A stretch of 64,000 nt of DNA from a virus. Where the stretch lies: the IMG/VR virus record IMGVR_UViG_3300035670_000067, positions 1 through 64,000 of that record; one strand, given 5' to 3'. The notes under the pieces were generated by a model. That model saw nothing but the letters and a program-made list of their open reading frames with translations, ran no database searches and was not told the DNA's origin. Positions 817 through 16,408 of the stretch are shown here, piece by piece (position 1 is the stretch's first letter; each line of letters opens with the position of its first letter). Position numbers and translations under genes: made by a program.

Positions 817-2382
817 CTACATTTGCTTCACAGTAACTGTTTTTTCAAGCCAATTAATCGTGATCTGAGTAATGCCTCCGACAGCTTCTTCCGGGTCAGG
901 CTTTGACGTTTTTTCTGCCATCAACACTGTCGTAGCTGTCGTGTAAGTGCTGGAAGAACCATCTTTTTCAACCTTATCAACCTTGACAGGCTCTTCGGTC
1001 TTAATTGGCTCTTCGACGGGCTTCTCAATATTCACATTTATACCATCCACTTCTCTAATGCCATGCTTATTAACGTATGCTCTACATGGTCTTAGCCAAG
1101 GACATGCCGCACAGAAACTATCAAAGTCTTCTTTCTTTTCAGGACTTTCATCAACAGTGCCCCAGCAATCAAATCCGACATCTTGTAACGCTTTATGTTC
1201 GTGGTAATCGCGCGAAGATATATCTACAGTAGATTTGAATGTCTCATCATTAAGAGCTTCAAGAATTGTTTTTGCGATTACATCAGATTTGAAATTCATT
1301 ATAAATTCAAAAGCGCGCTCCGCTATCTTTTTCATGCTCTTGGGTTTAGCCAATATATTATGCAAAACTTCTTTCGCATTATCCCAATTGTAACTCACAC
1401 ACGCATCTTCTGGAATTGTGTTATCAGCTCCAGCCAATATATCTTCGTGCACGACAGATATGCATCCGTAAAGCATAGGCTCGAAATGAGTATAATTGTT
1501 ATAGCCTCTTGTTGAACCGTCAATTGAGAATTTGGTAATTTTGAATTTTTCTACTAAAAGATCATGCGGTATAAAACCATGATAAATATGTTCAATAGGT
1601 TGTTCAGCCTCGTATTCCTTATCTTCAACTAAATCACGTTTGATAAATTTCTGCAATCTTCCCTGCGCAAGTAAATCGTGATATTCCTTGCCACCACCAT
1701 AAAAGTGAATGGAGCATCCGTCAAACCCGTCCAATGCTTCGAAGATTTTTGCATGTCCCTTCCACTGTATCCACTGCTGAGCCATCATACCATCAGCTCG
1801 TTCATCACCCATTTTAGGCAATGACGCAAATGTAAGATCGTCAGGTATTATCATTGGAAAATAAGTCCAAATCTTCTTGGCTTCTGTTGGATATGAATCT
1901 ACGGCATTGAAATGTGGACGCTGACTGGCAACAAGCAAATCAATATATTCGGAAGCTAAAATAAACCATTTATTCGTTTTGTGCCAATACACGTCATGCA
2001 TTGTAACTATCTTTTTGATGCCATCTGTCTTTGAATATAAATCCAGCCATCCCATGGGGCTAACAACATTCATATTTCCCTTAGTGGGATGCGGACTTGG
2101 ATGAATAAAATGTATCAAGTCAAATTGCTTAAGTCTCTGGACTGTTGAATTGATGAGATCTGGATGATAAGAAATAAATTCGCTATCTAATTTCTCGCCA
2201 CGCATATACCTAATGCCTATTGGAACTTTCTTATCATTGTCACAACTGTACCTGAATCCGCTTGTCGCATAGAAGTGAGTTACTTCGTGCCCCAATAATC
2301 TGTACCCATCACGTATTGCTTCAGCCCATGTCGTAATCCCGCCAACGTCGAGAATGGGGAAATTGATCAATGCGATCTTCAT
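817..2382 (-). CDS. GT-B glycosyltransferase, T4 DNA alpha-glucosyltransferase-like, with C-terminal Cys cluster
   Basis: MKIALINFPILDVGGITTW..LGHEVTHFYA, KIVTMHD, QWIQWKGH and NYTHFEPMLYG parallel recalled T4 Agt segments (MRICIF..GCGVTKF..GHEVTLVYA, VVYQHD, TTTWKGF, EYTHLELGACG); C-terminal CWG..CAACPWLRPC. Confidence 0.65.
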   Translation of the reverse strand: MKIALINFPILDVGGITTWAEAIRDGYRLLGHEVTHFYATSGFRYSCDNDKKVPIGIRYMRGEKLDSEFISYHPDLINSTVQRLKQFDLIHFIHPSPHPTKGNMNVVSPMGWLDLYSKTDGIKKIVTMHDVYWHKTNKWFILASEYIDLLVASQRPHFNAVDSYPTEAKKIWTYFPMIIPDDLTFASLPKMGDERADGMMAQQWIQWKGHAKIFEALDGFDGCSIHFYGGGKEYHDLLAQGRLQKFIKRDLVEDKEYEAEQPIEHIYHGFIPHDLLVEKFKITKFSIDGSTRGYNNYTHFEPMLYGCISVVHEDILAGADNTIPEDACVSYNWDNAKEVLHNILAKPKSMKKIAERAFEFIMNFKSDVIAKTILEALNDETFKSTVDISSRDYHEHKALQDVGFDCWGTVDESPEKKEDFDSFCAACPWLRPCRAYVNKHGIREVDGINVNIEKPVEEPIKTEEPVKVDKVEKDGSSSTYTTATTVLMAEKTSKPDPEEAVGGITQITINWLEKTVTVKQM

Positions 2383-3512: not shown

Positions 3513-3972
3513 TTGGTTCCATTTCTATAATGTGAAGCAGAGTGTTAAAATCCCAATGAGTATGATTTTCAAGTGTCCCATCCTTATGCCTTCGAATATA
3601 CCATGGTCTAAGCTCTTCTATCTTTACTCTTGCATATCTTGAATCATTTAAGCATCTAATCGGCAATACGATCGCGATCTTGGGAAATGCGCGAATAAAA
3701 ACTATGCCCAGCCCTACACCGCCAGCCAAATGCGCAGCTTCTAATCCCTGTTTTTGGTGATCCTTAAAGATGCCAACATTAAAAGTCCCACTATTCAACA
3801 ATTTGAATTCAACAGCCACAAATGCTGAGCGCCAAACAAAGTAAGAATCATATGGCTTTAACTTCGTATTCCTGGCATCCATCAGTGTGACTACATGAAT
3901 ATTCTGCTTTGTTTCAGCAGACCACTGTCTCAGCTCATTTCTGAACTGTGATGCTTTCTGACGCTCAGACAT
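3499..3972 (-). CDS. RecU-like Holliday junction resolvase (PD-(D/E)XK)
   Basis: KPYD...AVEFK...KDHQKQGLEAAHLAGGVGLGIV. Confidence 0.7.
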   Translation of the reverse strand: MSERQKASQFRNELRQWSAETKQNIHVVTLMDARNTKLKPYDSYFVWRSAFVAVEFKLLNSGTFNVGIFKDHQKQGLEAAHLAGGVGLGIVFIRAFPKIAIVLPIRCLNDSRYARVKIEELRPWYIRRHKDGTLENHTHWDFNTLLHIIEMEPNVRS

Positions 3973-4576
3973 AAGACTTTTTCCTTAGATCGTACACGCT
4001 GCCTATCGTTTGCGCAAATTCAGAAGATTGTGTAACAACCATTAGTTGGATCCCGAATCTCTCGCAAACCTTTTTAATGAAATTGCCAGCAATGATCTGC
4101 CTGTCTGGCTCTAATCCACCAAATGGTTCATCTAAGAATATAACCTTATTGATTGATTTATCCACCTTACAAATTACAATCCGCATTAAAACGCCTATAA
4201 TCTCAGCCACCGAACGCCCCTTGTTCATACGGATATCTAGCCAGCCTTCTCCCCTGTTGGCATTCACCATGAAATCACAAGAAGTGTTGTCACCATGCCT
4301 ACCTATCTCAAACTTGAATCTATACTTGTCATCAAACATATCAATTAAACCAGCAGAGATCACACCTTCAAACATTTCGATAATCTTATCATATCGTTTG
4401 CTGATAAGATACTCTATAACTAACCTTGCACGTTTACGCTTTTTGATTTCAGCTAACGCTTCTTTCCTCTGCGTCTTTGCTTCTGCAATTTTCTTCTTTA
4501 TCTGTTCGCGTATTTTCTTCGCAGCGTATAGATCGTTGAAAACTGCATCTATTTTACTTTTTTCTAAACTGAGCAC
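3965..4576 (-). CDS. SbcC/Rad50 ATPase C-terminal half (coiled coil, signature, Walker B)
   Basis: VIFLDEPFGGLE (Walker B/D-loop), MVVTQ switch; probable GTG start at 4576 with GGAGG 6 nt upstream. Confidence 0.8.
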   Translation of the reverse strand: MLSLEKSKIDAVFNDLYAAKKIREQIKKKIAEAKTQRKEALAEIKKRKRARLVIEYLISKRYDKIIEMFEGVISAGLIDMFDDKYRFKFEIGRHGDNTSCDFMVNANRGEGWLDIRMNKGRSVAEIIGVLMRIVICKVDKSINKVIFLDEPFGGLEPDRQIIAGNFIKKVCERFGIQLMVVTQSSEFAQTIGSVYDLRKKSYV

Positions 4577-4811
4577 AAATAACCTCCAATTCTTCCAATT
4601 CCTTCGATATGCGCTTTTCTTCTTCTTCAAGCTTAACCTTCAGAGCATCTAACTCTTTACGCATCTGCTTTGTGGAACAAACTTCTTTGTTGAAAAACTT
4701 CAGCAACTCTTTTTGAGCAAGATCACGTTTATGCTTCAGCATATCGTGCTCGACCTGTAGCTTGTTTAACTCTTGACGCATTGCTTCTACTTTCTTAACG
4801 ATATTGATCAT
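4554..4811 (-). CDS. Coiled-coil protein, probable SbcC arm fragment
   Basis: 85-aa heptad-rich helix lying between sbcD and the SbcC C-half. Confidence 0.55.
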   Translation of the reverse strand: MINIVKKVEAMRQELNKLQVEHDMLKHKRDLAQKELLKFFNKEVCSTKQMRKELDALKVKLEEEEKRISKELEELEVICAQFRKK

Positions 4812-4820
4812 CGCACTCTC

Positions 4821-5816
4821 CTACATTACCTGTTCTAATTTCTCGAGACAATATTGTTTGACTTCTTCTGATACCTTAGCTGTCAACAATGCTGGCGGAT
4901 TCAATAAGATCAATTTTAGATTTTCCACAAAATTTGCACCAAGCGTATTTGATTCGGACAAAGATTCCATCGCTTCTATGAAGTTTTGTTTCTGTAACTT
5001 TTCAATAGCTCTATCAACTGAAGACAGATCAAATACTTCAGAAGCCTTTTTAGTTTTCAATTTTATTTGTTCGATATCGATATCAAATCCATTTATCCTA
5101 ATTATGGCTATCCCCGGCCCAACACCCTCTACAGAACTTTTATAATCAACTCTTCCTATAGAGCCGGGATTTACGAAATATGTTTTTCTATTCAAAGATT
5201 CTACGGCTATTGGCTTGTGGAATCCTAAATGATTATGTCCGCACAAAACCAGATCTACATTAGTCGAAACGTCTCTGGGGTCTACCGTTACCCTAGCCCC
5301 ATCAATGATTTTGGTCGGCGCATCGCAGAACATCGCGTGAGTCAATAAAACTGTCGGCTTCTTTTCATCAATGATTTTAGAACACCAAGTATCACTAGCA
5401 ACTAAATCTCTAGAATAATCTATTCCAGTTATCACACACGACTTTGTAATAACGGTATCTTTAGAAACTCTGCGAAACCACTTGTATCTCTCGAGTAACC
5501 CGAAATTCGTTTTATGAACATAATCTGCATTCCCACCCTGTACGTCATGATTGCCATACACAAACAGAATGTTTAATTCTGGATAGCTTTCCACAATTGA
5601 CACAAATCTTACCATCAACTCATCGTCAGGTTTGTACGAATGTGAAAGATCACCAGTAACCGCCAGATAGTGTATTTTTCTTTTTCTGCAAATTTCAACC
5701 GACTGTGTCAGAAGACTGAACACATCTTCGTTATAGTTGTCTATCCTATTCTCTGGCGGACGATTGGCGATATGTAAATCAGTTATGTGAGCTATCTGCA
5801 ACATATAAATTTCCAC
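4821..5816 (-). CDS. sbcD: SbcD/Mre11-like nuclease (calcineurin-like metallophosphoesterase)
   Basis: DLH, GDL, GNHD, TH and GHNH motifs, NPGS. Confidence 0.85.
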   Translation of the reverse strand: MEIYMLQIAHITDLHIANRPPENRIDNYNEDVFSLLTQSVEICRKRKIHYLAVTGDLSHSYKPDDELMVRFVSIVESYPELNILFVYGNHDVQGGNADYVHKTNFGLLERYKWFRRVSKDTVITKSCVITGIDYSRDLVASDTWCSKIIDEKKPTVLLTHAMFCDAPTKIIDGARVTVDPRDVSTNVDLVLCGHNHLGFHKPIAVESLNRKTYFVNPGSIGRVDYKSSVEGVGPGIAIIRINGFDIDIEQIKLKTKKASEVFDLSSVDRAIEKLQKQNFIEAMESLSESNTLGANFVENLKLILLNPPALLTAKVSEEVKQYCLEKLEQVM

Positions 5817-6864
5817 ATTCTTTGCATTTGATTAATTGATACTTAGACAACTGCTCTTGTGTCTTTGCCTTACTTTTCTCTATGTCTTCCATTCTATCTT
5901 CGATATCAACTAGCATATGGCACGTTTCTAACATATTGTTAATGTCAGCCCCATTCTTTAGGAATGCGTTTAGAGCCGTTTCCAGCCCCTCCAACCGTTG
6001 CGCCACACCGGCAACCGCCGCATATTTATTGAATGCCGCGCTGGCCTCTGTAAGGGCATCCAATAGTCTTCTTTGGGTACACGCATTAGCGGCGGCGGCA
6101 AGGCAACTGCCTAACTGTTCAATGAGTGTAGCCAGTCTATTGATTTCTGTACTACTGCTCTCCAACAATTCTAGATCAGCTATAGCTTTTTCGTATTGTG
6201 CAACTGAAGCAGCTAGTGAATCGAATTGTCCACGCAACTCTTGACATCTAACGAATTGTTCTTCTACTCCATTATATGTCTTAAGTTCTACACGATGTGA
6301 AGACAAAGAAGCTTCTATAGAATGTAATCCGTTCTGTTTTTCGCAAATCTCGCGGCTAATTGTTTTCTTTATCTTTTCAGCAATGTCTATGCCTGTAAGA
6401 TAATTCAGCAGGCTACCCCTTGTCGGCGCACTTTCATAAACTAGAAATGGTAATGGATTATCAACACCGGCGATGACTGGACACAATTCAACATTACCCA
6501 GTTTGATAAACATAGTCCCAAGTATCTGCTTTATCGGCGCTGGGACTTCTGACCCGAATCCTGTAAACTTTTTGTCATTCAGTATATAACTATTTTCGTG
6601 CTTACCGCGCACTCTAACGATTATGATGTCTTCATTCAACCCTTCGAATATCAATTTAACAGACGCATCAAGTATCTCCCCATTTTCCTTCCTACGCATC
6701 CATTCTCCGCGTGGCGAATTCGTAGCTGCCCAGTGATACGCTCTGACTAATGCACTTTTTCCGCTATCATTTGCGCCTATTAGTGCGAACGCATTGTCTC
6801 TAATCTCTACATCCAAATGCTTATGACATTGGAAGTTTTTCAGGATTATCCGTTTTAGGCGCAT
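5779..6864 (-). CDS. SbcC/Rad50 ATPase N-terminal half ending at the zinc hook
   Basis: LKNFQCH, Walker A GANDSGKS, coiled coil, C-terminal CKECG. Confidence 0.85.
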   Translation of the reverse strand: MRLKRIILKNFQCHKHLDVEIRDNAFALIGANDSGKSALVRAYHWAATNSPRGEWMRRKENGEILDASVKLIFEGLNEDIIIVRVRGKHENSYILNDKKFTGFGSEVPAPIKQILGTMFIKLGNVELCPVIAGVDNPLPFLVYESAPTRGSLLNYLTGIDIAEKIKKTISREICEKQNGLHSIEASLSSHRVELKTYNGVEEQFVRCQELRGQFDSLAASVAQYEKAIADLELLESSSTEINRLATLIEQLGSCLAAAANACTQRRLLDALTEASAAFNKYAAVAGVAQRLEGLETALNAFLKNGADINNMLETCHMLVDIEDRMEDIEKSKAKTQEQLSKYQLIKCKECGNLYVADSSHN

Positions 6865-7228
6865 TGAGTTTATTCATCCTTGGAACGGTGGAACTTAAGA
6901 AACCTATGAAATCGACTGGTTTGTGACAATGGGGACATAGAATGATATCCCCATCCTTACATTCTTTCATATCTAATGCGTAACCGTCGAGAAACTCACA
7001 CTTGTCTGGTGTCCAATGATCATACGCTACACAGTCTTTAGTCTTTACTCGCCCAAATCTATCAGCTTTCACTCTTAGCGGCACAAACGAAACACCAATA
7101 GGTCTGTTTTCATTCACGCACACTATGACCGGATAAAAATGCCGCCTCCGAAGAGGCGGCATCGCTTTCATCCGCTTAATTCTTTGCTGGCGCTTGCTCA
7201 TCCTTCGGAACCTCGGGAAGTTTAACAT
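6821..7228 (-). CDS. hypothetical Cys-containing protein
   Basis: CPHC motif, co-oriented; start uncertain. Confidence 0.45.
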   Translation of the reverse strand: MLNFPRFRRMSKRQQRIKRMKAMPPLRRRHFYPVIVCVNENRPIGVSFVPLRVKADRFGRVKTKDCVAYDHWTPDKCEFLDGYALDMKECKDGDIILCPHCHKPVDFIGFLSSTVPRMNKLNAPKTDNPEKLPMS

Positions 7229-7418
7229 CCTTCATCTTAGCGCGAACCTTGGGGTTGAGCGCCAGGATGTTCATAACACTAACGAAATAGTTGACAAACT
7301 TCCAAAGGAATTTGTCATCTTCCTTTGTCGGCGTCAACTTGACCACTATACTCGCGCCAGCGATAACATAGCACACAACATTAAGGATAGAGACCCAATT
7401 GTCTTGGAACCACTGCAT
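7176..7418 (-). CDS. Small membrane protein, holin-like
   Basis: N-terminal TM helix, LTPTKEDD motif, second amphipathic helix; AGGAG SD. Confidence 0.5.
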   Translation of the reverse strand: MQWFQDNWVSILNVVCYVIAGASIVVKLTPTKEDDKFLWKFVNYFVSVMNILALNPKVRAKMKDVKLPEVPKDEQAPAKN

Positions 7419-7427
7419 GTTTTTCTC

Positions 7428-7757
7428 CTAGTTTTTGAACAACGTTAACGTCAAAGTGTAGACAAATGTACCATTAAGCCCGTCTTCACGCAACAGAGCG
7501 GTTTTCTGATTGCTGATCAAAATCTTTTCCAATTCAGCTAATATCTTATGAACCATCTGCGAATATACAACATCTTCAGCACGAAGATCTTCCAAAAGTG
7601 CTCTTCTTTCAACAGCGCATTTTACGGTTAAAGAACCGATGTGTTTCTTAATTAATTCTACAATTGCATCTCTTACATATTGTTTATTGAAATCATCTAG
7701 TGCGGCCTCTGCCAATATCCTGGATAATTCATCTTGCAATATAGAAGTGTCAGCCAT
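7428..7757 (-). CDS. hypothetical protein
   Basis: Tightly packed co-oriented ORF. Confidence 0.55.
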   Translation of the reverse strand: MADTSILQDELSRILAEAALDDFNKQYVRDAIVELIKKHIGSLTVKCAVERRALLEDLRAEDVVYSQMVHKILAELEKILISNQKTALLREDGLNGTFVYTLTLTLFKN

Positions 7758-8139
7758 TTTGCATTGAAACCTTTTTAGCTATCTTCTTTATCCTATTTTC
7801 AATCTGCTTTGTTACAACAATCAGCTCTTCAAGAGTATCAATGTCGTTTTGAGTGACTTTCCCATGAATGCCGATAGCCATATTGGCATATAGATAAGAA
7901 ACTACAAACGCTAAGGCGTGATGTACGCTAGAAAAATATCCAAGATTCGTACCAGATATGTTGCCTTTATCCTTTATCCAGCGAAAGGCTTCTTTGTGTG
8001 TATCCCAATCATACCTGCCACCAACCTTTTCAACGACAACACAATTCAAACTACTAATAATCTTTAGTCCATCTATGGTAATGTTGATGTATTGTCGAGA
8101 TTCGGTTTTTGCTTGGTCTTTCTTCATACTACGCACCAA
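7750..8139 (-). CDS. hypothetical protein
   Basis: Tightly packed co-oriented ORF. Confidence 0.55.
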   Translation of the reverse strand: MVRSMKKDQAKTESRQYINITIDGLKIISSLNCVVVEKVGGRYDWDTHKEAFRWIKDKGNISGTNLGYFSSVHHALAFVVSYLYANMAIGIHGKVTQNDIDTLEELIVVTKQIENRIKKIAKKVSMQNG

Positions 8140-9229
8140 TTTTATTTTTCAGTTCTTTTATCTGAACCTTCAGCTTTTTCTTTTCTTCTTCGTCTATCGT
8201 AGCTTTATACAATCTTCTCAAATGACGCAGATTCTTTTGATCTTCGCTTTCTGTCGGAAAAAGTACATCAACAATTGACTTTCTAAGCTCTTCGTTATTT
8301 CTAATCGCTTCAATAGCTCCATTTATACCCTGACCGATGTTAACGCCATTAACTGAATACCAAGACCCGCCCTTACATACCGCACCAGCCTTTAGCCCCA
8401 TTTCAATAAGCTCTTTTTCCTTATTGAAACCAGTACCAAATTCAATAGAAGTCTCTGCAATTCTAAATGGCGGAGCAAGTTTATTCTTTATAATCTTAAC
8501 TCTTACATTTGTACCAGCGGGACCGTCCTCTTCATCCTTTGTTTTATCAGTCTGCGTCTTCCTAATATCGACACGAACGGAAGAATAAAACTTCATGGCT
8601 TCGCCACCCGGACTTACCTCTGGCGACCCCCATTGGACTCCGATTTTTAACCTAATCTGATTAGTAAAGATAACCAGAGTCTCTGTCTTTTTTATCGGAC
8701 CTGACAACATTCGGCAGGCTTGTGACATGAGTCTAGCTTGAAGGCCGATATGACTATCTCCAATGGCACCTTCTAACTCTGCTCGCGGAACAAGTGCTGC
8801 TATGGAGTCTATAACGACAACGCCAAATTCTCCCGTACGGATCATAGTCTCTGCGATCTGCAGCGCTTCCTCGCCATTGTCTGGCTGACTAAAGATCAAA
8901 GCGTTATCCCCAACAAGCTGAACCCCAAGCTGTTCTGCATATATAGGATCGAGTGCGTTTTCTACATCTATGAATCCACACTTTTTACCGACTTTCTGCG
9001 CATTCGCTATGACATGCAAACACATCGTTGTTTTGCCAGACGAAGCCGGTCCCAGTATCTCAACCATTCTGCCATAAGGAAATCCACCGATACCAAGCGC
9101 TTTATCAACAGCGTAACTTCCACTAGAGATACACGGAACCTTTTTTGCAGTTCCGTCAAAAACATATGCAGACTCAACACCATGCTTTTCTTTGATCATC
9201 TGGACTAGGGCAGAACTATTCATGTTCAC
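8129..9229 (-). CDS. recA: RecA recombinase
   Basis: GPASSGKTT, FIDVENALDP, SQPDNGEEAL, IDSIAALVP, GLQARLMSQA, NQIRLKIG, KNKLAPPF. Confidence 0.97.
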   Translation of the reverse strand: MNMNSSALVQMIKEKHGVESAYVFDGTAKKVPCISSGSYAVDKALGIGGFPYGRMVEILGPASSGKTTMCLHVIANAQKVGKKCGFIDVENALDPIYAEQLGVQLVGDNALIFSQPDNGEEALQIAETMIRTGEFGVVVIDSIAALVPRAELEGAIGDSHIGLQARLMSQACRMLSGPIKKTETLVIFTNQIRLKIGVQWGSPEVSPGGEAMKFYSSVRVDIRKTQTDKTKDEEDGPAGTNVRVKIIKNKLAPPFRIAETSIEFGTGFNKEKELIEMGLKAGAVCKGGSWYSVNGVNIGQGINGAIEAIRNNEELRKSIVDVLFPTESEDQKNLRHLRRLYKATIDEEEKKKLKVQIKELKNKIGA

Positions 9230-9239
9230 CTCTTATGTA

Positions 9240-9270
9240 ATGAAAGAGGGCAGGCTAAATGCCTGCCCTC
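9240..9270 (-). terminator. Stem-loop, weak terminator or processing site between the SSB-like gene and recA
   Basis: GAGGGCAGGC-5 nt-GCCTGCCCTC followed by TTTCAT on the minus strand. Confidence 0.5.
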
Positions 9271-9295
9271 CTCTCGGGGTTGGATGGGTTGAGAG

Positions 9296-9811
9296 CTAAA
9301 GCTTTTTGACTTTCTTAACTTTCTTGACCTTCTTTGCCTCTGCGTCTTCTCCTGCTCCAGAACGACATTTGGACCCGTAAGCTGCGATCTTAGTGATCGA
9401 ATCTCTTGTGGCGACAACACCCTTACGATCAGGGCGTTCTTTCAATTCGATAAAAACATCAAACTTCTCGCCATAATACGCAGTCAGGTCTATCTCGTCT
9501 CCGATATCAATCGGATTGCCACCATTCATTACGGTAACGTAAGACATCAGCTTACTGGTGGGGGTCAGTTCAAGACCGACAAACGCCTTGGCGATATAGC
9601 CCTTAGCTGATTCACCGCCAGTGAATTTGCCACCAGTCAGCTTGAATTCAAGAGCCGCCATCGGCCCGAACTTAGCTTCTATGATCTTAGCGGCCTGGAA
9701 CACAGAAGGATACCATTCATGCGATTCGGGTAACTGACGCGGACGCTCCTTGATAACAACGATACGCTTGAGATTGACTTCGCCGTTATCCTGTTTCTTT
9801 TCCTTTTCCAT
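9296..9811 (-). CDS. Putative single-stranded DNA-binding protein (OB-fold, DUF669-like)
   Basis: Beta-rich pattern (KFGP..LEF.L, SKL..Y, IDL..YYG), position beside recA, higher-GC codon usage. Confidence 0.5.
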   Translation of the reverse strand: MEKEKKQDNGEVNLKRIVVIKERPRQLPESHEWYPSVFQAAKIIEAKFGPMAALEFKLTGGKFTGGESAKGYIAKAFVGLELTPTSKLMSYVTVMNGGNPIDIGDEIDLTAYYGEKFDVFIELKERPDRKGVVATRDSITKIAAYGSKCRSGAGEDAEAKKVKKVKKVKKL

Positions 9812-9812
9812 A

Positions 9813-10448
9813 TCACACCTTCAGTTTGATTCTTGCTTTTTCTTGATTTACAACTTCAATCCCAGCCGACTTCCCTTGTACGATATTGCGCAACGTTGGC
9901 AACAAAGCACCTTTCGTAATAACAGCCGCCCGGAAAACATTATTAAGCAGTCTGTATTGAAATTCTAGGTCGGATATTTGTTTTTGCCATTCACGTATCT
10001 TTTCCTTATATTTCTTTGCCATGTAACCGCGAACAGTATTTTCAGTTACGCTTTCTCTTGGCTTGGCGACATTATCCTGCAGATGACATTTGCAAGTGTA
10101 GTACAATTCTTCTTGCCATAACTGATATCTGTTTTTCAATTCTTCCAGCTTGTGTCTTGCGATTTCACACACTAGCGAGACGCTTGCTTCTAGCGCAGCT
10201 TGTTCATCCACATGAACTGCAAGCTCTGGTAACGGTATGTCGCCACCAACTCTGAGTTGCTCAAAACTGAAACCAAACTCTTTCTTTATTTGCTCTGCCT
10301 TATCAGCCGGGATAACAAACACATAACGATCACGTTCCCTGCTTACTTTCACACCAGCGTGTTTCAGCAGGGAACGTGCGATGATCTGTTTATCCTGGCT
10401 GTTTATATCGTCACTCTGACTTGCCATCGTCGTGTTCGAGAGTAACAA
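9813..10448 (-). CDS. Putative UvsY-like recombination mediator
   Basis: Helical pattern VTENTVRGY...WQKQISDLE...AVITKGALL resembles UvsY-family proteins; context next to SSB-like gene and recA. Confidence 0.45.
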   Translation of the reverse strand: MLLSNTTMASQSDDINSQDKQIIARSLLKHAGVKVSRERDRYVFVIPADKAEQIKKEFGFSFEQLRVGGDIPLPELAVHVDEQAALEASVSLVCEIARHKLEELKNRYQLWQEELYYTCKCHLQDNVAKPRESVTENTVRGYMAKKYKEKIREWQKQISDLEFQYRLLNNVFRAAVITKGALLPTLRNIVQGKSAGIEVVNQEKARIKLKV

Positions 10449-11271
10449 TCATCTGACCCTTCTTGGCGTTCGCGATCGGAACACCTTTCAAGGTCTTCTT
10501 AATCCCGCGCTCTTTGCACAAAGCGCGCAACTCGTCATCGGTCATCTCAGAATAATCCTTCTCTTCCTCTTCCTCTTCCCCTTCCTCTTCCTCTTCCTCT
10601 TCCTCTTCCTCTTCCTCTTCCTCTTCCTCTTCCTCTTCCTCTTCGGCTTCCTCTTCCTCTTCGGCTTCCTCTTCCTCTTCCTCTTCGGCTTCCTCTTCCT
10701 CTTCGGCTTCCTCTTCCTCTTCGGCTTCCTCTTCCTCTTCTTCCTCGTCAGCCTCTTCGGCTTCCTCTTCCTCTTCTTCCTCATCAGCCTCTTCGGCTTC
10801 CTCTTCCTCTTCGGCTTCCTCTTCCTCTTCTTCCTCGTCAGCCTCTTCGGCTTCCTCTTCCTCTTCTTCTTCCTCGTCAGCCTCTTCGGCTTCCTCTTCC
10901 TCTTCTTCTTCCTCGTCAGCCTCTTCGGCTTCCTCTTCCTCTTCTTCCTCGTCAGCCTCTTCGGCTTCCTCTTCCTCTTCTTCCTCGTCAGCCTCTTCGG
11001 CTTCCTCTTCCTCTTCTTCCTCGTCAGCCTCTTCGGCTTCCTCGTCCGTATCAACCTTAATGTCTTCTTCCTTACCGATTAACGCACCCTTCTTAGCCAA
11101 ACTGTTCCAAATTTCCTTAGCTTCATCAGCAAGAGCTTCAACACCAGTCTTCAGATCATCGCCAACAAATCTGGCGAGATGAATGGACATCACACCAGAC
11201 GTACCGGTCTTGAAATCTCTACCATACGCGACCGTGATTTCGTTCTTCTTTTCTACTTCGACCTTAGCCAT
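10411..11271 (-). CDS. Poly-Glu acidic protein with C-terminal HeH/Rho-N-like nucleic-acid-binding motif
   Basis: ~165 aa of (EEAEEADEEEEE)n followed by DYSEMTDDELRALCKERGI...KKGQMIVTLE. Confidence 0.7.
   Translation of the reverse strand: MAKVEVEKKNEITVAYGRDFKTGTSGVMSIHLARFVGDDLKTGVEALADEAKEIWNSLAKKGALIGKEEDIKVDTDEEAEEADEEEEEEEAEEADEEEEEEEAEEADEEEEEEEAEEADEEEEEEEEAEEADEEEEEEEEAEEADEEEEEEEAEEEEEAEEADEEEEEEEAEEADEEEEEEEAEEEEEAEEEEEAEEEEEEEAEEEEEAEEEEEEEEEEEEEEEEEEEEEGEEEEEEKDYSEMTDDELRALCKERGIKKTLKGVPIANAKKGQMIVTLEHDDGKSE
10560..11045 (-). repeat. Tandem coding repeat (36-39 nt units degrading to GAAGAG runs)
   Basis: ctcttcggcttcctcttcctcttcttcctcgtcagc repeated on the + strand. Confidence 0.9.
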
Positions 11272-12388
11272 TTTCTGCTTCCTTGTATTTTGTTAGTTGG
11301 GAAAGTTCAGTTTTTCTGCTATCGAAGAGCAGCTTACCTCTATTCTTCTTTAAAGAAGCGATAAAACACTTACCCTTCTGCAGATGTTCAGAAACGTCGG
11401 ACCAGTCACTTGCAAAAACAGTTATTGAGCTTTCTGACTGGCCATCGGTAATGTCTACGAACCCCATTTCGTTTCCATTTTTATCTGTGTGTTTTTTCAC
11501 TTTGATGACCTCAAAGGCCACCTTTATCATTTCTCCTTCTTCTTTTTGTTCTATCAATGCGAGAGTGTTAGCTTTTTCTGCCGCTATAATATCAACAAAC
11601 TGTTTCAGCTTACTTGGCTTGAACGAATAACCATAAGCTATGTCCTGAGCATATTGTTTGTTGATTCTTTTACCAGTACACGCTTCCTCTGAATGGCTTA
11701 TGGCGGCACTGCCACAATACGGACACACTATACCATCTTCTTGTAACTTTTTCACTTGTACATTTACAGGATAACGATATTTACATTCGTAACAGAAAAT
11801 TTGACGACATACTTTCTTATCACCACGCATTTCCAATAACTCATCATATATGACTTCCATCTTGCCAAATTTTCTAAATGTATTGGCAAGAACTATATTA
11901 GTCAATGTCGCAATCGTCAACGCTCTATTTGCTGTTCTCTGCACGAAATCTTGGAATGATAAAAACTTTCCGTTTTTACGTTCTATTTCTATCACTTCTA
12001 TGGCTTTATCACCAACTCGCTTGATTGCAGTCCATGGCGAAACCAAACATCCCTTACCAACAACGAAATCTCTTGTGCTCTTGTTGACTTCTGGTGGGAC
12101 TATCTTTATAGCCATTCTCCTAGCTTCGGAAAGAACTGAAATAAACTTTTTGTCGTCGTCAGTGCTATATGTCAGCACCGCATTTATGTACTCAGCAGGA
12201 TAGTGATATTTCAAATAAGCTGACATATAAGCTATGAACGCATAAGCGCAGGCGTGGGAATTATGAGTAACAGTGTTCTGTACAACATAATTTCTACGCC
12301 GTTGAGTCATTTCTAAATCATAAACGCTTCTAATTCCCAATTTTTTGACTGAAACAATGCGCGAATTTTTGACTTGAACGTTATCCAT
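11264..12388 (-). CDS. dnaE: DNA polymerase III alpha C-terminal half, preceded by a split-intein C-fragment
   Basis: 43-aa IntC ending VTHN, then SHACAYAFIAYMSAYLKYHYPAEY, PPEVNKS, HhH (IKRVGDKA), OB fold (DKNGNEMGF..D..SITVF). Confidence 0.93.
   Translation of the reverse strand: MDNVQVKNSRIVSVKKLGIRSVYDLEMTQRRRNYVVQNTVTHNSHACAYAFIAYMSAYLKYHYPAEYINAVLTYSTDDDKKFISVLSEARRMAIKIVPPEVNKSTRDFVVGKGCLVSPWTAIKRVGDKAIEVIEIERKNGKFLSFQDFVQRTANRALTIATLTNIVLANTFRKFGKMEVIYDELLEMRGDKKVCRQIFCYECKYRYPVNVQVKKLQEDGIVCPYCGSAAISHSEEACTGKRINKQYAQDIAYGYSFKPSKLKQFVDIIAAEKANTLALIEQKEEGEMIKVAFEVIKVKKHTDKNGNEMGFVDITDGQSESSITVFASDWSDVSEHLQKGKCFIASLKKNRGKLLFDSRKTELSQLTKYKEAENG
12260..12388 (-). mobile_element. Split intein C-fragment (IntC, 43 aa)
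   Basis: IVSVKKLGIRSVYDLEM...NYVVQNTVTHN|S: blocks F and G, His-Asn end, Ser +1. Confidence 0.92.
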
Positions 12389-13287
12389 ATTGATTTCTCA
12401 CATTTGATTTGATGTTCCCACATCACCACCATACCATCTACTTTCTTACTTCTATTTATAAATTTCGCCTTTGATTTATCTCTTATCAAATTCTTCTGAA
12501 CAGCAATCGGTATACTTTTCTTATGTCCAAAAAATCTTGGATGCCAATGCCAATAAATACCATGACATTCTACAACAATTTTCTTGTCGCCTATAAATAT
12601 TAAGAAATCATATAAATATCTTCCCAATTTCTTTTGATGAACAAATTTAACATTATGTCGCTTTAGAAATTTTTTGAAAATTAATTCTATAGAAGAACTT
12701 TTTCCGTTATTCGAATCGCGCTTAAGCCTTTCTATTGTCACATCACGCATAAAATTCTTGAGTCTCTGCGAATGACGTTTGCCCAACATCCCATGCACTT
12801 TGCGTTTAGAAGCCGAAATCGACATCTTTTTGCGGGTTTCTTCAGTGGGATATCTGAACATATTCTTCAGACTAACAGACAACATAGATTTAGAAGTTTC
12901 TTTTGTAAGACCTTTATTCCAAGCTGTTTTACCTAATCGCGGATTATTCTGCTCCATCCACCTAGCTTGTCTTTCTATAGACGCATTAGATTCTCTTGTA
13001 AGCCCCTTATTCCACGCCTTATGCGATGAACACTTTTTACCATCAGCACAAAATTTATTCAGCACTATCCCACTAGAATACAGACATACCTTCAAAGGCT
13101 TCCCGCATCCACATTTAGATACGTTCAAAAATTTAACGATATACTGCTCGACATTTAATTTGTGTTCCTTCATTAGATGATAATTGAACATCCACGCCTT
13201 ATATTTTCCGTTCTTTTTTCCTTCATAATACAAGTATTCTGGCTTATTACAATACGGACATTTATTGGGGACTTCAGCGATTTTCAT
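12313..13287 (-). mobile_element. Free-standing homing endonuclease (Vsr/DUF559-like) with Zn fingers and NUMOD-type repeats
   Basis: CPYC..H..H and CGCG; two AWNKGLT repeats; TEETRKKMS and GKRHS; C-terminal SSIE..YLYDF..VVECHGIYWH..RDKSK..VVMWE. Confidence 0.85.
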
Positions 13288-13324
13288 AAATCACCATATG
13301 GTAAAGCATGAGAGACATGCCTAA

Positions 13325-13612
13325 TCATATCGTTCTAACTATTCCATATGAAAAATCACTTTCGATCAACTGCCTCAAAGTCCTATATTCTCCGTCATCG
13401 CATAACAGCCTATGATCTAAAGTGCAAGATAATTTTTCTCCATCATCGAAACATATCTCATAACATTCCATTTCACCATTATCATACACTTTTTGTACTG
13501 GGTCAAAATGAATTCCATCTTCATCGTGAGTAGCGACTAAATCACCAACATTGATATCTCTAATTTTCTTTTCACCTTCTATGGTCAGCACCAACTGATT
13601 TTCTTCAACACA
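13325..13612 (-). mobile_element. Split intein N-fragment (IntN, 95 aa)
   Basis: Block A CVEENQLVLTIEG.KKIRDINVGDLV, block B CTLDHRLL, then a stop codon. Confidence 0.92.
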
Positions 13613-15955
13613 TCTGTTGAACGTGTATTTACTGAACGCTTCAATAAATCCCCAAATCTCTTCAGCAAGCGCTTGGTCAATATCAGATTTTTCTTTACAG
13701 CCCTTGTAGAATTTTTCCTTCCAAACAGCAAACTTTCGCGGGTCTTTTAGCTTGATGCCCTTACGGAAATTGTCAGATTCAGATGGTGTAAATCCTGCTA
13801 AGACAACCGCCAACTTAGACGCTTGCTCTTGGAATAACAACACACCATAACTCTTTCCAAGAACGCTTTCCATCTTAGGATGCAGATATTGATAATATTG
13901 GCCATGCTTTCTGTTGACATATTCAGTGTGCATGTTCTTTTCAAGAACACCAGTACGATACAACGATATGATAGCAATTATATCTTCTATGGAATCCGGC
14001 TTCATATCTTGAGACAGTTTTATCATGCCGTCAGAAGTGCCAAGCTGGAACAATCCAACATTCAGACCCTTACCAATCATTTCATAAACATCTTGGTCTT
14101 CAAGATGTTCCAACATAAATTCGCACAACCCATCGAAGTCAGAAAACGAAACCTTGTGCCTTTCCTTTATAAGCGCAACAGTCCTTGCAATGATATCTAA
14201 TGTATTCTGTCCAAGAAAGTCTAATTTCAAAATACCAAGGTCTTCCAAGGCGTACATGTCCCATTCAGTAACTTTTACGTCTTTCTTTTTGTTCTTACCG
14301 CCAGTTAATGAATACGCAATCGGACACCATTCATGCACCGGAGTTCTAGTGACCACTACACCACTTGCATGAACGCCGGTTTGCCTGTTTACGCCAAGCA
14401 GGTTAACAGCAGTGTTTTCAATATCTTCATTTTCTTCTAGGAATTCAGCGACCTGTGGATAACCAGTTACTATTTCATCCCAATTCTTTTTATAATCTTC
14501 GTACGAAGAATTGGGTGGAAGCGCCGTATCACCATCATCTATTTTAGAAGTGATACTATTGACCAGTCCAAAATCCATATCAAATACTTTAGCTGCATCT
14601 TTAATCGCGCTCTTAGGCTTCCACTTGGTGTAATTACAGATGTGAGCAACACATTCGTTGCCATACTTTTCAATCACATAATCAAGAACCCTTGAGCGTA
14701 ATTCCTTGCTAAAATCCATGTCTATATCTGGGAGTGTAAGACGCTCTTTGGTCAAAAATCTTTCAAATGGACAATCAAACCTAATTGGATCTACCCATGT
14801 AATATTCATCAGGAAGGCGATCAATGAACCGTTTACACTTCCGCGAGCATTGTATGGAATATCATTTTTTCTACAAAAATTCGCAATATCGTAAACGACA
14901 AGAAAATAATTACTGAATTTCAGAGAAGTGATAACTCTATATTCTTCTTTATAGCGCAGTCTATATTCTTTCTCCTTCATGAGTTTACCCCATGACGGAT
15001 GCTTCTTGCAAATCTCATCAAGGTCTGTGTCTGGCGTTTCTGATACAATCGGTAATGGTGAACCTTCCGGTAACAGATTAAACGCTTCTATTCTATTTGC
15101 CAAACAAACAGTCTCATCTATCGCTTGATTCAGCATTTCATCGCTGATATAATCGTGCCACAAGTCTCTGGCTGAACGTAATTCGTTCACATCTTTCAAC
15201 CAAAGCTGTTTCGTGGCGTAAGTGTGATTTTCTGCATCATTTACACTTTCCCGCCATTTAACACAGATGACGGCATCATGTATATTGCTCTGTTCTTTTG
15301 ATATGTAGTGTCCATCCATAGTAACTATGAACGGCAATCCGTATAGCCTAGCAAGGCGTAACACATATTTGTTCAAACGAACCTGTTCCGGCATATCGTT
15401 TAACTGAATTTCTGCATATATCCTATCTTTGAACACAGTCATCAAATTCTTAAGTCTGCGCTTAATCAACCTCTTTTTGATTTTATGCTTTGCAGACAAC
15501 ATATTCTTCTTCAGATAATCAAATCCGACTAGACCATTTTCACAGCCAGTTGTGATTAGCAAGCCTTCATTGTGTTCTATCAAATCTTTGATTGAAACTC
15601 TTGGCTTCTTTAAGAAACCGTTTTCCCAAGCGTTGCGCATGAGAATCTTAAGATTGCTCCACCCGACAGCGTTCATTGCCAAAATAATCATGTGTCCATA
15701 ATTATATGGAATATTTGATTGTTCTGTATCGTAATCATCAACCCAATAAATCTCGCATCCGATAATCGGCTTTATTCCGGCCGCTTTGCAAGATTTCCAA
15801 AGATTATAGATACCTCCGAGTGTACCGTGATCGGTGACAGTTACAGCGGTTTGTTCTCTAGTCTTGGCTTCTGCCACCAGATCTTCCACTCTGGTAACAG
15901 CGTCCAAAACAGAAAAATGCGTATGACGGTGGTGGTCAATGAACATTGTTTGCAT
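13325..15955 (-). CDS. dnaE: DNA polymerase III alpha N-terminal half (PHP and polymerase core) fused to a split-intein N-fragment
   Basis: HHRHTHFSVLD, TDHG, ARGSVNGSL, FERFL, PDIDMDF, GVHASGVV, KLDFLG, LFQL, FQEQ; ends YTFNR|C... Confidence 0.95.
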   Translation of the reverse strand: MQTMFIDHHRHTHFSVLDAVTRVEDLVAEAKTREQTAVTVTDHGTLGGIYNLWKSCKAAGIKPIIGCEIYWVDDYDTEQSNIPYNYGHMIILAMNAVGWSNLKILMRNAWENGFLKKPRVSIKDLIEHNEGLLITTGCENGLVGFDYLKKNMLSAKHKIKKRLIKRRLKNLMTVFKDRIYAEIQLNDMPEQVRLNKYVLRLARLYGLPFIVTMDGHYISKEQSNIHDAVICVKWRESVNDAENHTYATKQLWLKDVNELRSARDLWHDYISDEMLNQAIDETVCLANRIEAFNLLPEGSPLPIVSETPDTDLDEICKKHPSWGKLMKEKEYRLRYKEEYRVITSLKFSNYFLVVYDIANFCRKNDIPYNARGSVNGSLIAFLMNITWVDPIRFDCPFERFLTKERLTLPDIDMDFSKELRSRVLDYVIEKYGNECVAHICNYTKWKPKSAIKDAAKVFDMDFGLVNSITSKIDDGDTALPPNSSYEDYKKNWDEIVTGYPQVAEFLEENEDIENTAVNLLGVNRQTGVHASGVVVTRTPVHEWCPIAYSLTGGKNKKKDVKVTEWDMYALEDLGILKLDFLGQNTLDIIARTVALIKERHKVSFSDFDGLCEFMLEHLEDQDVYEMIGKGLNVGLFQLGTSDGMIKLSQDMKPDSIEDIIAIISLYRTGVLEKNMHTEYVNRKHGQYYQYLHPKMESVLGKSYGVLLFQEQASKLAVVLAGFTPSESDNFRKGIKLKDPRKFAVWKEKFYKGCKEKSDIDQALAEEIWGFIEAFSKYTFNRCVEENQLVLTIEGEKKIRDINVGDLVATHDEDGIHFDPVQKVYDNGEMECYEICFDDGEKLSCTLDHRLLCDDGEYRTLRQLIESDFSYGIVRTI

Positions 15956-16003
15956 ACCTTATAATAGCACGGCCACACACGTTTACAACAATACCAGACA
16001 CTT

Positions 16004-16408
16004 TTATTTTATCTTAGTGAATCCACCAGCACGACGAATTCTATCGGTTATTCTTTTCTCATCCTTAACCATCTTGAATATAGCTTCTTTAGCGTCCGCA
16101 TTGAGTATCCTGCGCAACGACAATGCTGGTTTGAATTTGATTACTTTTCTAGAACCTTTTTCTTGCCAAGTGCCAGTATGACGAATATAATACTTGAAAG
16201 GCTTTCTCCACTTTATATGAAATATCCCGAATCCTCTTATATTCAAAAGACTGTTTTTCAGCAAAGTCTTCTGTGCCAATATAAACACAGATTCTATTAT
16301 TCTTTTGGCGAGGTCTCTTTCTAATCCGTACTGTCTGGCGAATTCAGAAATAAATTCTTCGTCTAATACATAACCTATCTTTTCGTCATTTTCAATTCGC
16401 CTATTCAT
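16004..16408 (-). CDS. HU/IHF-family DNA-bending protein
   Basis: LNIRGFGIFHIKWRK...HTG...KVIKFKPALSLRRILN. Confidence 0.85.
   Translation of the reverse strand: MNRRIENDEKIGYVLDEEFISEFARQYGLERDLAKRIIESVFILAQKTLLKNSLLNIRGFGIFHIKWRKPFKYYIRHTGTWQEKGSRKVIKFKPALSLRRILNADAKEAIFKMVKDEKRITDRIRRAGGFTKIK

Follow-up and report, generated by a model that had tools for sequence, protein, structure and literature searches.

The described arrangement closest to the locus reported here is that of the fractured genes of Dassa, London, Stoddard, Schueler-Furman and Pietrokovski (2009), which include three DnaE loci, one of them (DnaE-2) with a Vsr-like endonuclease (PMC2677866). In these genes the endonuclease overlaps the C-terminal intein half (IntC) by 6–69 bp, and hairpins were reported in 15 of the 16 endonuclease 5′ UTRs (PMC2677866). 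A second point of reference is the cyanobacterial split DnaE (Ssp and Npu), whose halves are unlinked in the genome and are not accompanied by an endonuclease; the native C-extein of SspDnaE is CFNK (PMC2664965), whilst that of the split intein gp41-1 is SSS (PMC7090010). Pol III alpha inteins have also been noted in actinobacteriophages (bioRxiv 10.1101/2025.01.02.630785). For the endonuclease, the relevant system is I-Bth0305I, whose gene lies within a group I intron of recA (PMC3239194).

The window analysed here is a stretch of 64,000 nucleotides (positions 1 to 64,000 of the 110-kb IMG/VR record IMGVR_UViG_3300035670_000067). Three ORFs, all on the minus strand, make up the locus: DnaE-N with the N-terminal intein half (IntN), an endonuclease, and IntC with DnaE-C. 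Recomputing the coordinates reproduced what an earlier note, made from the letters alone, had described, namely both dnaE ORFs, the FNR/C and THN/S junctions (the slash marks the extein–intein boundary), a 95-aa IntN and a 43-aa IntC. The same value was also obtained for its 76-nt overlap, in which the 3′ end of the endonuclease gene covers the start of the IntC ORF in a different frame. The features are collected in Table 1.

Table 1. Features of the fractured dnaE locus, in window coordinates.
Feature	Position	Strand	Evidence or remark
DnaE-N + IntN ORF, 876 aa	13325-15955	-	ends FSKYTFNR/CVEENQ..., 95-aa IntN, TGA stop
DnaE N-extein, aa 1-781: PHP, Pol III alpha catalytic and finger domains, KYTFNR end	13613..15955	-	Pfam; colinear with L064 DnaE
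IntN, 95 aa, Cys1, block B motif CTLDH	13328..13612	-	PDB matches; alignment with 25 same-site IntN
DnaE-N/IntN stop codon (TGA)	13325-13327	-	
IntN Cys1 codon	13610-13612	-	
Spacer from DnaE-N stop to endonuclease start, two predicted RNA hairpins	13276..13330	-	RNA fold
Endonuclease ORF, 324 aa, free-standing	12313-13287	-	profile and family homology
Vsr-like/EDxHD nuclease domain (predicted), C-terminal, about aa 192-324	12316-12714	-	
IntC + DnaE-C ORF, 374 aa	11264-12388	-	IntC end ...TVTHN/SHACAY
IntC, 43 aa, block F Asp (VYDLEM), THN end	12260..12388	-	weak PDB match; alignment with 25 same-site IntC
Ser+1 codon	12257-12259	-	
DnaE C-extein, ORF aa 44-374 + stop: HhH, Cys4 zinc-ribbon insert, OB fold	11264..12259	-	Pfam; L064 and NiceHouse alignments

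Compared by description with the fractured genes of 2009, and with DnaE-2 in particular, the locus has the same dnaE host, adjacent same-strand halves and a break at the canonical endonuclease insertion point, leaving blocks A and B in IntN and blocks F and G in IntC. Also in common are a Vsr-like endonuclease of more than 300 aa, the final ~120 aa of which form the nuclease domain, an endonuclease 3′ end that overlaps IntC, and intein halves of opposite charge; a hairpin before the endonuclease start is predicted. The overlap itself is slightly longer than the range published for those genes (PMC2677866). With the cyanobacterial Ssp and Npu inteins the locus shares the host protein, the split point and the acidic IntN with a basic IntC. 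The site, however, is not the cyanobacterial allele, as had been recognised earlier: cyanobacteria have Y/CFNK with Cys+1, whereas the window has FNR/S with Ser+1, which, given the CFNK C-extein of SspDnaE, places the junction four residues downstream. Furthermore, the halves in the window are not unlinked, but lie 1.1 kb apart on either side of the endonuclease gene.

The N-terminal half matches Pfam families PF02811 (1.6e-32), PF07733 (2.9e-70) and PF17657 (2.3e-40), and the C-terminal half matches PF14579 (3.5e-17, HhH) together with a weak OB-fold match. An empty-site allele is provided by a syntenic phage (L064), which has the same HU-like gene upstream and acidic protein downstream, and a single uninterrupted DnaE of 1111 aa that is 45% identical. 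The N-extein is colinear with residues 3–782 of this protein (45% identity) and the C-extein, from Ser+1, aligns to residues 785–1090 (40% identity); neither intein half has a counterpart, and the L064 sequence (YGFCL/SH) joins up precisely where the two junctions lie. Similarly, the C half aligns with the DnaE of Rhodococcus phage NiceHouse from THN/SH onward. One host gene is thus present as two adjacent same-strand ORFs colinear with an intact homologue, as expected of a fractured gene. A related-locus search with the DnaE C fragment gave no match, and by megablast the locus had none among GenBank phages.

Between the stop codon of DnaE-N and the start of IntC lie 939 nt with 35 stops in the frame shared by both dnaE ORFs, which excludes fusion of the halves by read-through or frameshifting. 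The ATG at 12388 is the sole usable start for IntC and is preceded by a weak Shine-Dalgarno sequence; a start that would shorten IntC was rejected because the codon equivalent to that of the family is GTC. There is one copy of dnaE in the record, but the record is just 76% complete and a second polymerase elsewhere is possible. As the viral contig is metagenome-assembled, we also considered whether the break might be that of a decaying pseudogene (a contiguous intein whose frame was broken), an assembly artefact or a chimeric contig. This is very improbable, since none of the three ORFs is broken and each has its start codon where one is expected, the DnaE domains score strongly, and the same architecture recurs in dozens of independent contigs, with an IntN of 89–104 aa and an IntC of 37–39 aa.

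In a PDB search, the best solved relatives of IntN were the cyanobacterial (Npu/Ssp) DnaE inteins, with an E value of 1e-7, and gp41-1 was matched with 6e-5, whilst a profile of the same-site intein family fitted the two about equally (1.8e-14 and 5e-13, respectively). The weak PDB match of IntC was to the Spl DnaX mini-intein, with the alignment ending exactly at HN. A 127-aa query, comprising the last 32 N-extein residues and IntN, had 1597 relatives at E ≤ 1e-3 among 1.84 billion representatives. Judged by these alignments, the similarity to inteins is far above chance level. Word-indexed protein searches with the IntN and IntC regions returned the window itself or nothing. Single intein halves are expected to be disordered. 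On recount, the residues that underlie the proposed charge complementarity matched those given earlier, with 23 D/E and 9 K/R in the acidic IntN and 3 D/E and 8 K/R in the basic IntC.

The residues of a class 1 intein are present: Cys1, the Thr and His of block B (CTLDH), the block F Asp (VYDLEM), Asn43 at the end of IntC, and Ser+1. The exception is the F-block His, found in 25 of 25 same-site split IntC and in nearly all contiguous same-site inteins, the position of which is occupied here by Arg. The F-block His is common in inteins but not obligatory. The Arg might slow Asn cyclisation. This departure from all other same-site IntC examined would fit a non-covalent clasp, in which splicing has been lost or become very inefficient and the intein halves merely dock the polymerase pieces to give a two-chain enzyme. 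We give this explanation little credence, as every other catalytic residue listed above is retained, whereas splicing-dead relics have usually lost them, and as the penultimate His, missing in most same-site relatives, is present in the window and could compensate for the lost F-block His. The identification of a naturally split class 1 intein in a phage dnaE holds on its intein homology, its blocks and its junctions.

The endonuclease consists of an N-terminal Cys/His-rich region, WNKGLT (NUMOD3-like) repeats, which align with NUMOD3-bearing homologues (PF07460), and the C-terminal domain. Searched directly, it matches the Pfam entries DUF559 and Vsr weakly, and the window protein by itself has no direct PDB match. 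With a profile (A1) of the endonuclease and its homologues, the best solved match was 3R3P (I-Bth0305I, 5.5e-17), and Vsr (1CW0) was found at 3.4e-14. In the alignment, E201, D227, H247 and D270 occupy invariant or near-invariant columns and E240 is the consensus E of IECDG; the Ala residues of 3R3P at conserved columns are there because this structure is that of the D196A/H213A mutant (PMC3239194). Homologues that match the protein from end to end, with E values of 1e-15 to 1e-31, are encoded at 22 same-site loci; the gene itself is present once in the record. On profile and family similarity it is a member of the Vsr-like/EDxHD family, as had been proposed for the gene between the halves.

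I-Bth0305I shares with the window endonuclease the conserved E/D/H/D and the combination of N-terminal DNA-binding modules with a C-terminal Vsr-like domain, but it resides in the group I intron of recA rather than between dnaE intein halves. That group I introns, too, can harbour Vsr-like endonucleases (PMC3239194) raises the alternative of repair at the RNA level, with the endonuclease gene inside a self-splicing intron and the halves rejoined in the mRNA. We find this scarcely credible. A search of 11000–16200 gave no intron RNA family at E ≤ 1, on which basis a group I or group II intron was rejected; the break has intein blocks A/B on one side and F/G on the other, so that removal of an intron would leave the intein behind; and the extein boundaries coincide with the intein ends and not with RNA features.

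The spacer upstream of the endonuclease is predicted to fold with −18 kcal/mol (z −2.1), a modest excess, as 5 of 200 shuffles were equally good. The second predicted hairpin (13276–13295) pairs the GGUGA Shine-Dalgarno sequence with endonuclease codons 2–4 and leaves the AUG in the loop. Neither a terminator-like site nor the late-promoter motif TATAAATA was seen in the spacer.

The insertion site is heavily used. Of the 149 best 50%-identity clusters, at least 96 have an intein at Y-x-F-N-x/, and in at least 59 it looks split. The suggestion of the earlier note to search for split or contiguous alleles at FN[KR]/SH yielded many, the occupants being split, mini- and full-size inteins of a large family, and insertion points cluster at Y/, YGF/, FNK/ and FNKSH/. 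Approximately 33 IMG/VR loci have the order IntN, ORF of roughly 300 aa, IntC at this site, 22 of them with the full-length endonuclease homologue, and the conservation of the intein blocks across the loci argues for selection on function. In a tblastn search with the junction region, one GenBank phage record alone spans the junction, which indicates that the family resides almost entirely in uncultured phages. A full-text literature search for FNKSH found no paper.

The window element is 26–45% identical to its nearest relatives (nearest protein representatives P0004, P0059 and P0065). Family members such as L005, L007, L012 and L049 share with it the Y-x-F-N-x/S-H site, the split point, the gene order, Cys1 and Ser+1, and their endonucleases are full-length homologues (29–32% identity, E to 1e-31). 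The intein halves differ: IntN of the family is only 26–37% identical to that of the window, and IntC is 37–39 aa long, ends in [TVS]SN and has the F-block His, compared with 43 aa, THN and Arg. In addition, many same-site relatives have a dnaE that is broken again upstream, whereas that of the window is in two pieces. The penultimate His is shared with the Rhodococcus phages NiceHouse and Grayson (MT521992, MH153812), which have FNK/C...THN/SH at the same site, but as contiguous 150-aa mini-inteins with no endonuclease and with the F-block His kept.

Because the site is so heavily used by the same family, the window element does not appear to be an independent derivation. The earlier proposal of an independently derived split intein is thus unsupported, 22 same-site loci having both the endonuclease homologue and the same split point. 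Ser+1, moreover, is usual in fractured-gene inteins. Nor can the implied novelty be upheld, as the site is crowded and Vsr-like endonucleases had been reported in fractured DnaE loci before (PMC2677866). The identification of a fractured gene, in contrast, was correct, since the layout and overlap match those published (PMC2677866) and a hairpin is predicted. We conclude that a mobile unit, consisting of a class 1 intein with a Vsr-like/EDxHD gene at its canonical insertion point, very probably broke the phage dnaE into two genes. The locus is a textbook fractured gene, of a kind already described in 2009 and common to dozens of uncultured phages.

From the observed anatomy, catalytic residues, empty-site allele and family membership, we infer splicing, endonuclease cleavage and regulation as follows. 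The three ORFs would be co-transcribed, with DnaE-N–IntN and IntC–DnaE-C translated separately, the latter from a start inside the 3′ end of the endonuclease gene. The acidic IntN and basic IntC would then associate and fold into a HINT domain, and trans-splicing would proceed by an N–S acyl shift at Cys1, transesterification to Ser+1, cyclisation of Asn43 and an O–N shift, to give a DnaE of 1112 aa reading ...YTFNR-SHACAY.... The endonuclease, probably held down by the hairpin over its ribosome-binding site, would cut the intein-less dnaE of co-infecting phages and so spread the unit.

The window element may belong to a catalytic sub-lineage of its own within the FN[KR]/SH DnaE inteins, marked by the peculiarities of its IntC, namely the penultimate His, the Arg at the F-block His position and a length greater by 5 residues. 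In that case the two halves might accept no other partner, and be orthogonal to the common ...SN/ family as well as to gp41-1 and Npu DnaE. On a broader view, the clustered insertion points could mean that a fractured dnaE of a phage, displaced by four residues, gave rise to the cyanobacterial split dnaE; the family profile, which fits gp41-1 as well as Npu DnaE, gives no specific support for such descent. We regard the sub-lineage reading combined with this broader idea as rather unlikely.

To our knowledge, no tool for protein ligation is faster than gp41-1, NrdJ-1 and IMPDH-1, which are split inteins of fractured phage genes, so that each divergent pair is a candidate orthogonal tool. The window pair, with its divergence and its unusual C-terminal catalytic set, is one such candidate. 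Biologically, the locus is nothing new in kind, and illustrates the published breaking of genes through invasion by an intein-targeted endonuclease. What the family adds is a single dnaE site at which every stage can be seen: empty, with a full-size intein, with a mini-intein, split with an endonuclease and split without one.

The dnaE locus lies in the window, the initial 64 kb of a 110,384-bp IMG/VR virus record of estimated completeness 76%, and consists of three intact minus-strand ORFs arranged head to tail. The first ORF has Pfam matches to PHP, Pol III alpha and finger domains; HhH and OB domains are placed in the third, and both ORFs show weak Hint/intein matches at the break. The first ORF reads ...FSKYTFNR↓C (arrows mark junctions), then 95 residues and a stop, and the third begins with 43 residues ending ...TVTHN↓SHACAY. 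These halves, IntN and IntC, carry 23 D/E with 9 K/R and 3 D/E with 8 K/R, respectively. Both dnaE ORFs are in one frame, with 35 stops between them in that frame; the sole usable IntC start is the ATG at 12388, and the endonuclease ORF overlaps the IntC ORF by 76 nt. Against solved structures, IntN alone matches cyanobacterial DnaE inteins (E 1e-7) and gp41-1 (6e-5), whilst IntC aligns weakly with the final part of the Spl DnaX mini-intein, the alignment ending exactly at HN. The earlier note had described a split intein in phage dnaE with a Vsr-like endonuclease between the halves; domains, intein matches and the endonuclease profile all bear this out, and a script reproduced every number given for junctions, half lengths, charges and overlap.

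Features of the window and of related IMG/VR loci
Source	Feature	Position	Strand	Length
Window	DnaE-N + IntN ORF	13325-15955	minus	876 aa
Window	Endonuclease ORF	12313-13287	minus	324 aa
Window	IntC + DnaE-C ORF	11264-12388	minus	374 aa
Window	C fragment with Cys4 zinc-ribbon insert (ORF aa 196-227)	11264-12259	minus	
Window	Acidic protein	10411-11271	minus	286 aa
L064	Intein-less dnaE	5995-9330		1111 aa
L064	D/E/K-repeat protein	9389-9991		200 aa
L044	LAGLIDADG gene	3796-4806		
L030	Intervening ORF	857-1726		289 aa
L014	Split locus, endonuclease lost	5502-5650		
L020	Split locus, endonuclease lost	6367-6540		

Three lines of evidence, namely an empty site, contiguous mini-inteins and the lack of a detectable intron, show that an ordinary dnaE has received an inserted intein-plus-endonuclease unit. 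The closest relative found, L064 (45% identity in DnaE), has a single uninterrupted DnaE, preceded, as in the window, by an HU-like gene and followed by an acidic repeat protein. The N half of the window protein aligns to residues 3-782 of this DnaE and the C half, from Ser+1, to residues 785-1090, with no counterpart of the 95 + 43 intein residues; the window exteins, if joined, would total 1112 aa. Another locus, L056, also has an empty site (YSFNK↓SH). Contiguous 150-aa mini-inteins occupy the same site in Rhodococcus phages NiceHouse and Grayson (FNK↓C...THN↓SH), and a search for RNA intron families across the locus gave no match at E<=1. At the homing site the L064 allele reads YGFCL↓SH, compared with the usual Y-x-F-N-K/R↓SH, which could represent an endonuclease-resistant target-site variant.

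The L064 DnaE also keeps a Cys4 zinc-ribbon insert (CEDCKYRYP...CPSCNG) that lies between HhH and OB in the window (CYECKYRYP...CPYCGS). The acidic protein of the window, whose ORF overlaps the dnaE-C stop by 8 nt, is nearly pure Glu with periodic Ala/Asp over its middle ~190 residues (EEEEEEAEEAD repeats). Since the L064 repeat protein is in the matching position, the acidic tract is a conserved feature of the replication module.

The C-terminal 127 residues of the 876-aa ORF, used as query in an exhaustive HMMER search, matched 1597 representatives (E<=1e-3). Junctions were mapped in the best 150 of these; among the 149 non-self clusters, at least 96 have the intein at Y-x-F-N-x↓. In at least 59 same-site clusters the protein stops 87-116 residues after residue 1, a range narrow enough to indicate genuine stops rather than contig ends, and 37 run on as contiguous inteins. 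Contiguous same-site inteins range from 126 to 455 aa, mini and full-size forms both being present. A scan of IMG/VR found 57 loci, ~33 of them split at this motif. In 27 of these, IntN (89-104 aa) and IntC (37-39 aa) flank a same-strand ORF of 289-361 aa, which overlaps IntC by 4-103 nt across the 23 distinct loci. Only one record among GenBank phage isolates spans the junction, and the same-site family is therefore essentially confined to uncultured phages. Split and contiguous alleles at FN[KR]↓SH, for which the earlier note had proposed a search, are thus numerous, and the independent origin and implied novelty that it put forward are unsupported: the window element is a divergent member of a known, abundant kind.

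By sequence, the ORF between the two dnaE halves encodes a homing endonuclease of the Vsr-like/EDxHD family. Its direct Pfam matches are weak (DUF559/Vsr), and its homologues contain NUMOD3, DUF559 and MTES_1575 domains; full-length homologues make up 22 of the 27 intervening ORFs (E 1e-15 to 1e-31). In a 23-member alignment D227, G243 and H247 never vary, and E201 and D270 are almost invariant. The best solved matches of the profile are I-Bth0305I (3R3P, 5.5e-17) and Vsr (1CW0, 3.4e-14); 3R3P has Ala at two motif columns because it is a D196A/H213A mutant (PMC3239194).

At four loci (L044-L047) a free-standing LAGLIDADG endonuclease gene (PF14528, 1.8e-10) takes the place of the Vsr-like one at the identical site and split point, as does an ORF without a Pfam match at L030, which suggests that endonuclease replacement occurs within one same split intein. 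The endonuclease is gone from two distinct split loci, L014 and L020, in which only 141-167 nt lie between the IntN stop and the +1 codon; in the published gene-breaking model they represent the stage at which the endonuclease has been lost, the halves still being adjacent. L021 has the same junction as L020, and its contig ends first. In L005-L011, L022, L028, L049 and L050 the IntN-ending ORF has just 172-215 or ~500 extein residues, and a second split intein, ~80 residues upstream, supplies the IntC at the start of representatives P0104 and P0110, indicating DnaE encoded in three or more pieces. Further inteins follow YGF↓ and FNKSH↓/FNSAH↓ (P0089, P0127, P0096, P0170); with FNK↓ and the cyanobacterial Y↓, this makes four insertion points in ~7 residues of one DnaE motif.

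Aligned with 25 same-site pairs, the window IntN is 26-37% identical to its counterparts (45% to P0059, the best representative anywhere). The window IntC has five extra N-terminal residues, ends in THN where all others have [TVS]SN, and has Arg at the F-block position that is His in all others. The penultimate His recurs in the Rhodococcus phage mini-inteins and two other contiguous forms, and the remaining class-1 catalytic residues are all present. The missing F-block His would fit a non-covalent clasp, in which the intein halves dock the polymerase pieces without covalent joining, to which we assign a small probability. Under the preferred scheme of class-1 trans-splicing via Cys1 and Ser+1, the polymerase halves would be translated separately and dock by electrostatic steering. 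Co-transcription of the three ORFs is most likely; no terminator-like site was found between them. The endonuclease start is in the loop of a predicted hairpin, GGUGA being paired with codons 2-4 (z -2.1; 5/200 shuffles fold equally well). The fold is modestly better than that of shuffled sequence, and it may correspond to the regulatory hairpins reported for fractured genes. Splicing, endonuclease cleavage and regulation are all activities that we infer.

Fractured genes were defined by Dassa et al. 2009, who also described endonuclease-IntC overlaps of 6-69 bp, 5' hairpins and oppositely charged halves (PMC2677866). The insertion site differs from that of the cyanobacterial split DnaE intein, as the earlier note had held, the native C-extein of that allele being CFNK (PMC2664965). 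Ser+1 is normal among fractured-gene inteins, the native gp41-1 junction being SSS (PMC7090010). A same-site IntN profile scores about as well against Npu-type DnaE inteins (1.8e-14) as against gp41-1 (5e-13), and no other solved intein does better than 1e-5; this places the family in the DnaE/gp41-1 group with no special cyanobacterial tie. A 2025 preprint (10.1101/2025.01.02.630785) surveyed Pol III alpha inteins and Vsr-like intein endonucleases in actinobacteriophages. The window element is of value as another candidate orthogonal split intein, one whose C-terminal catalytic set is unusual.
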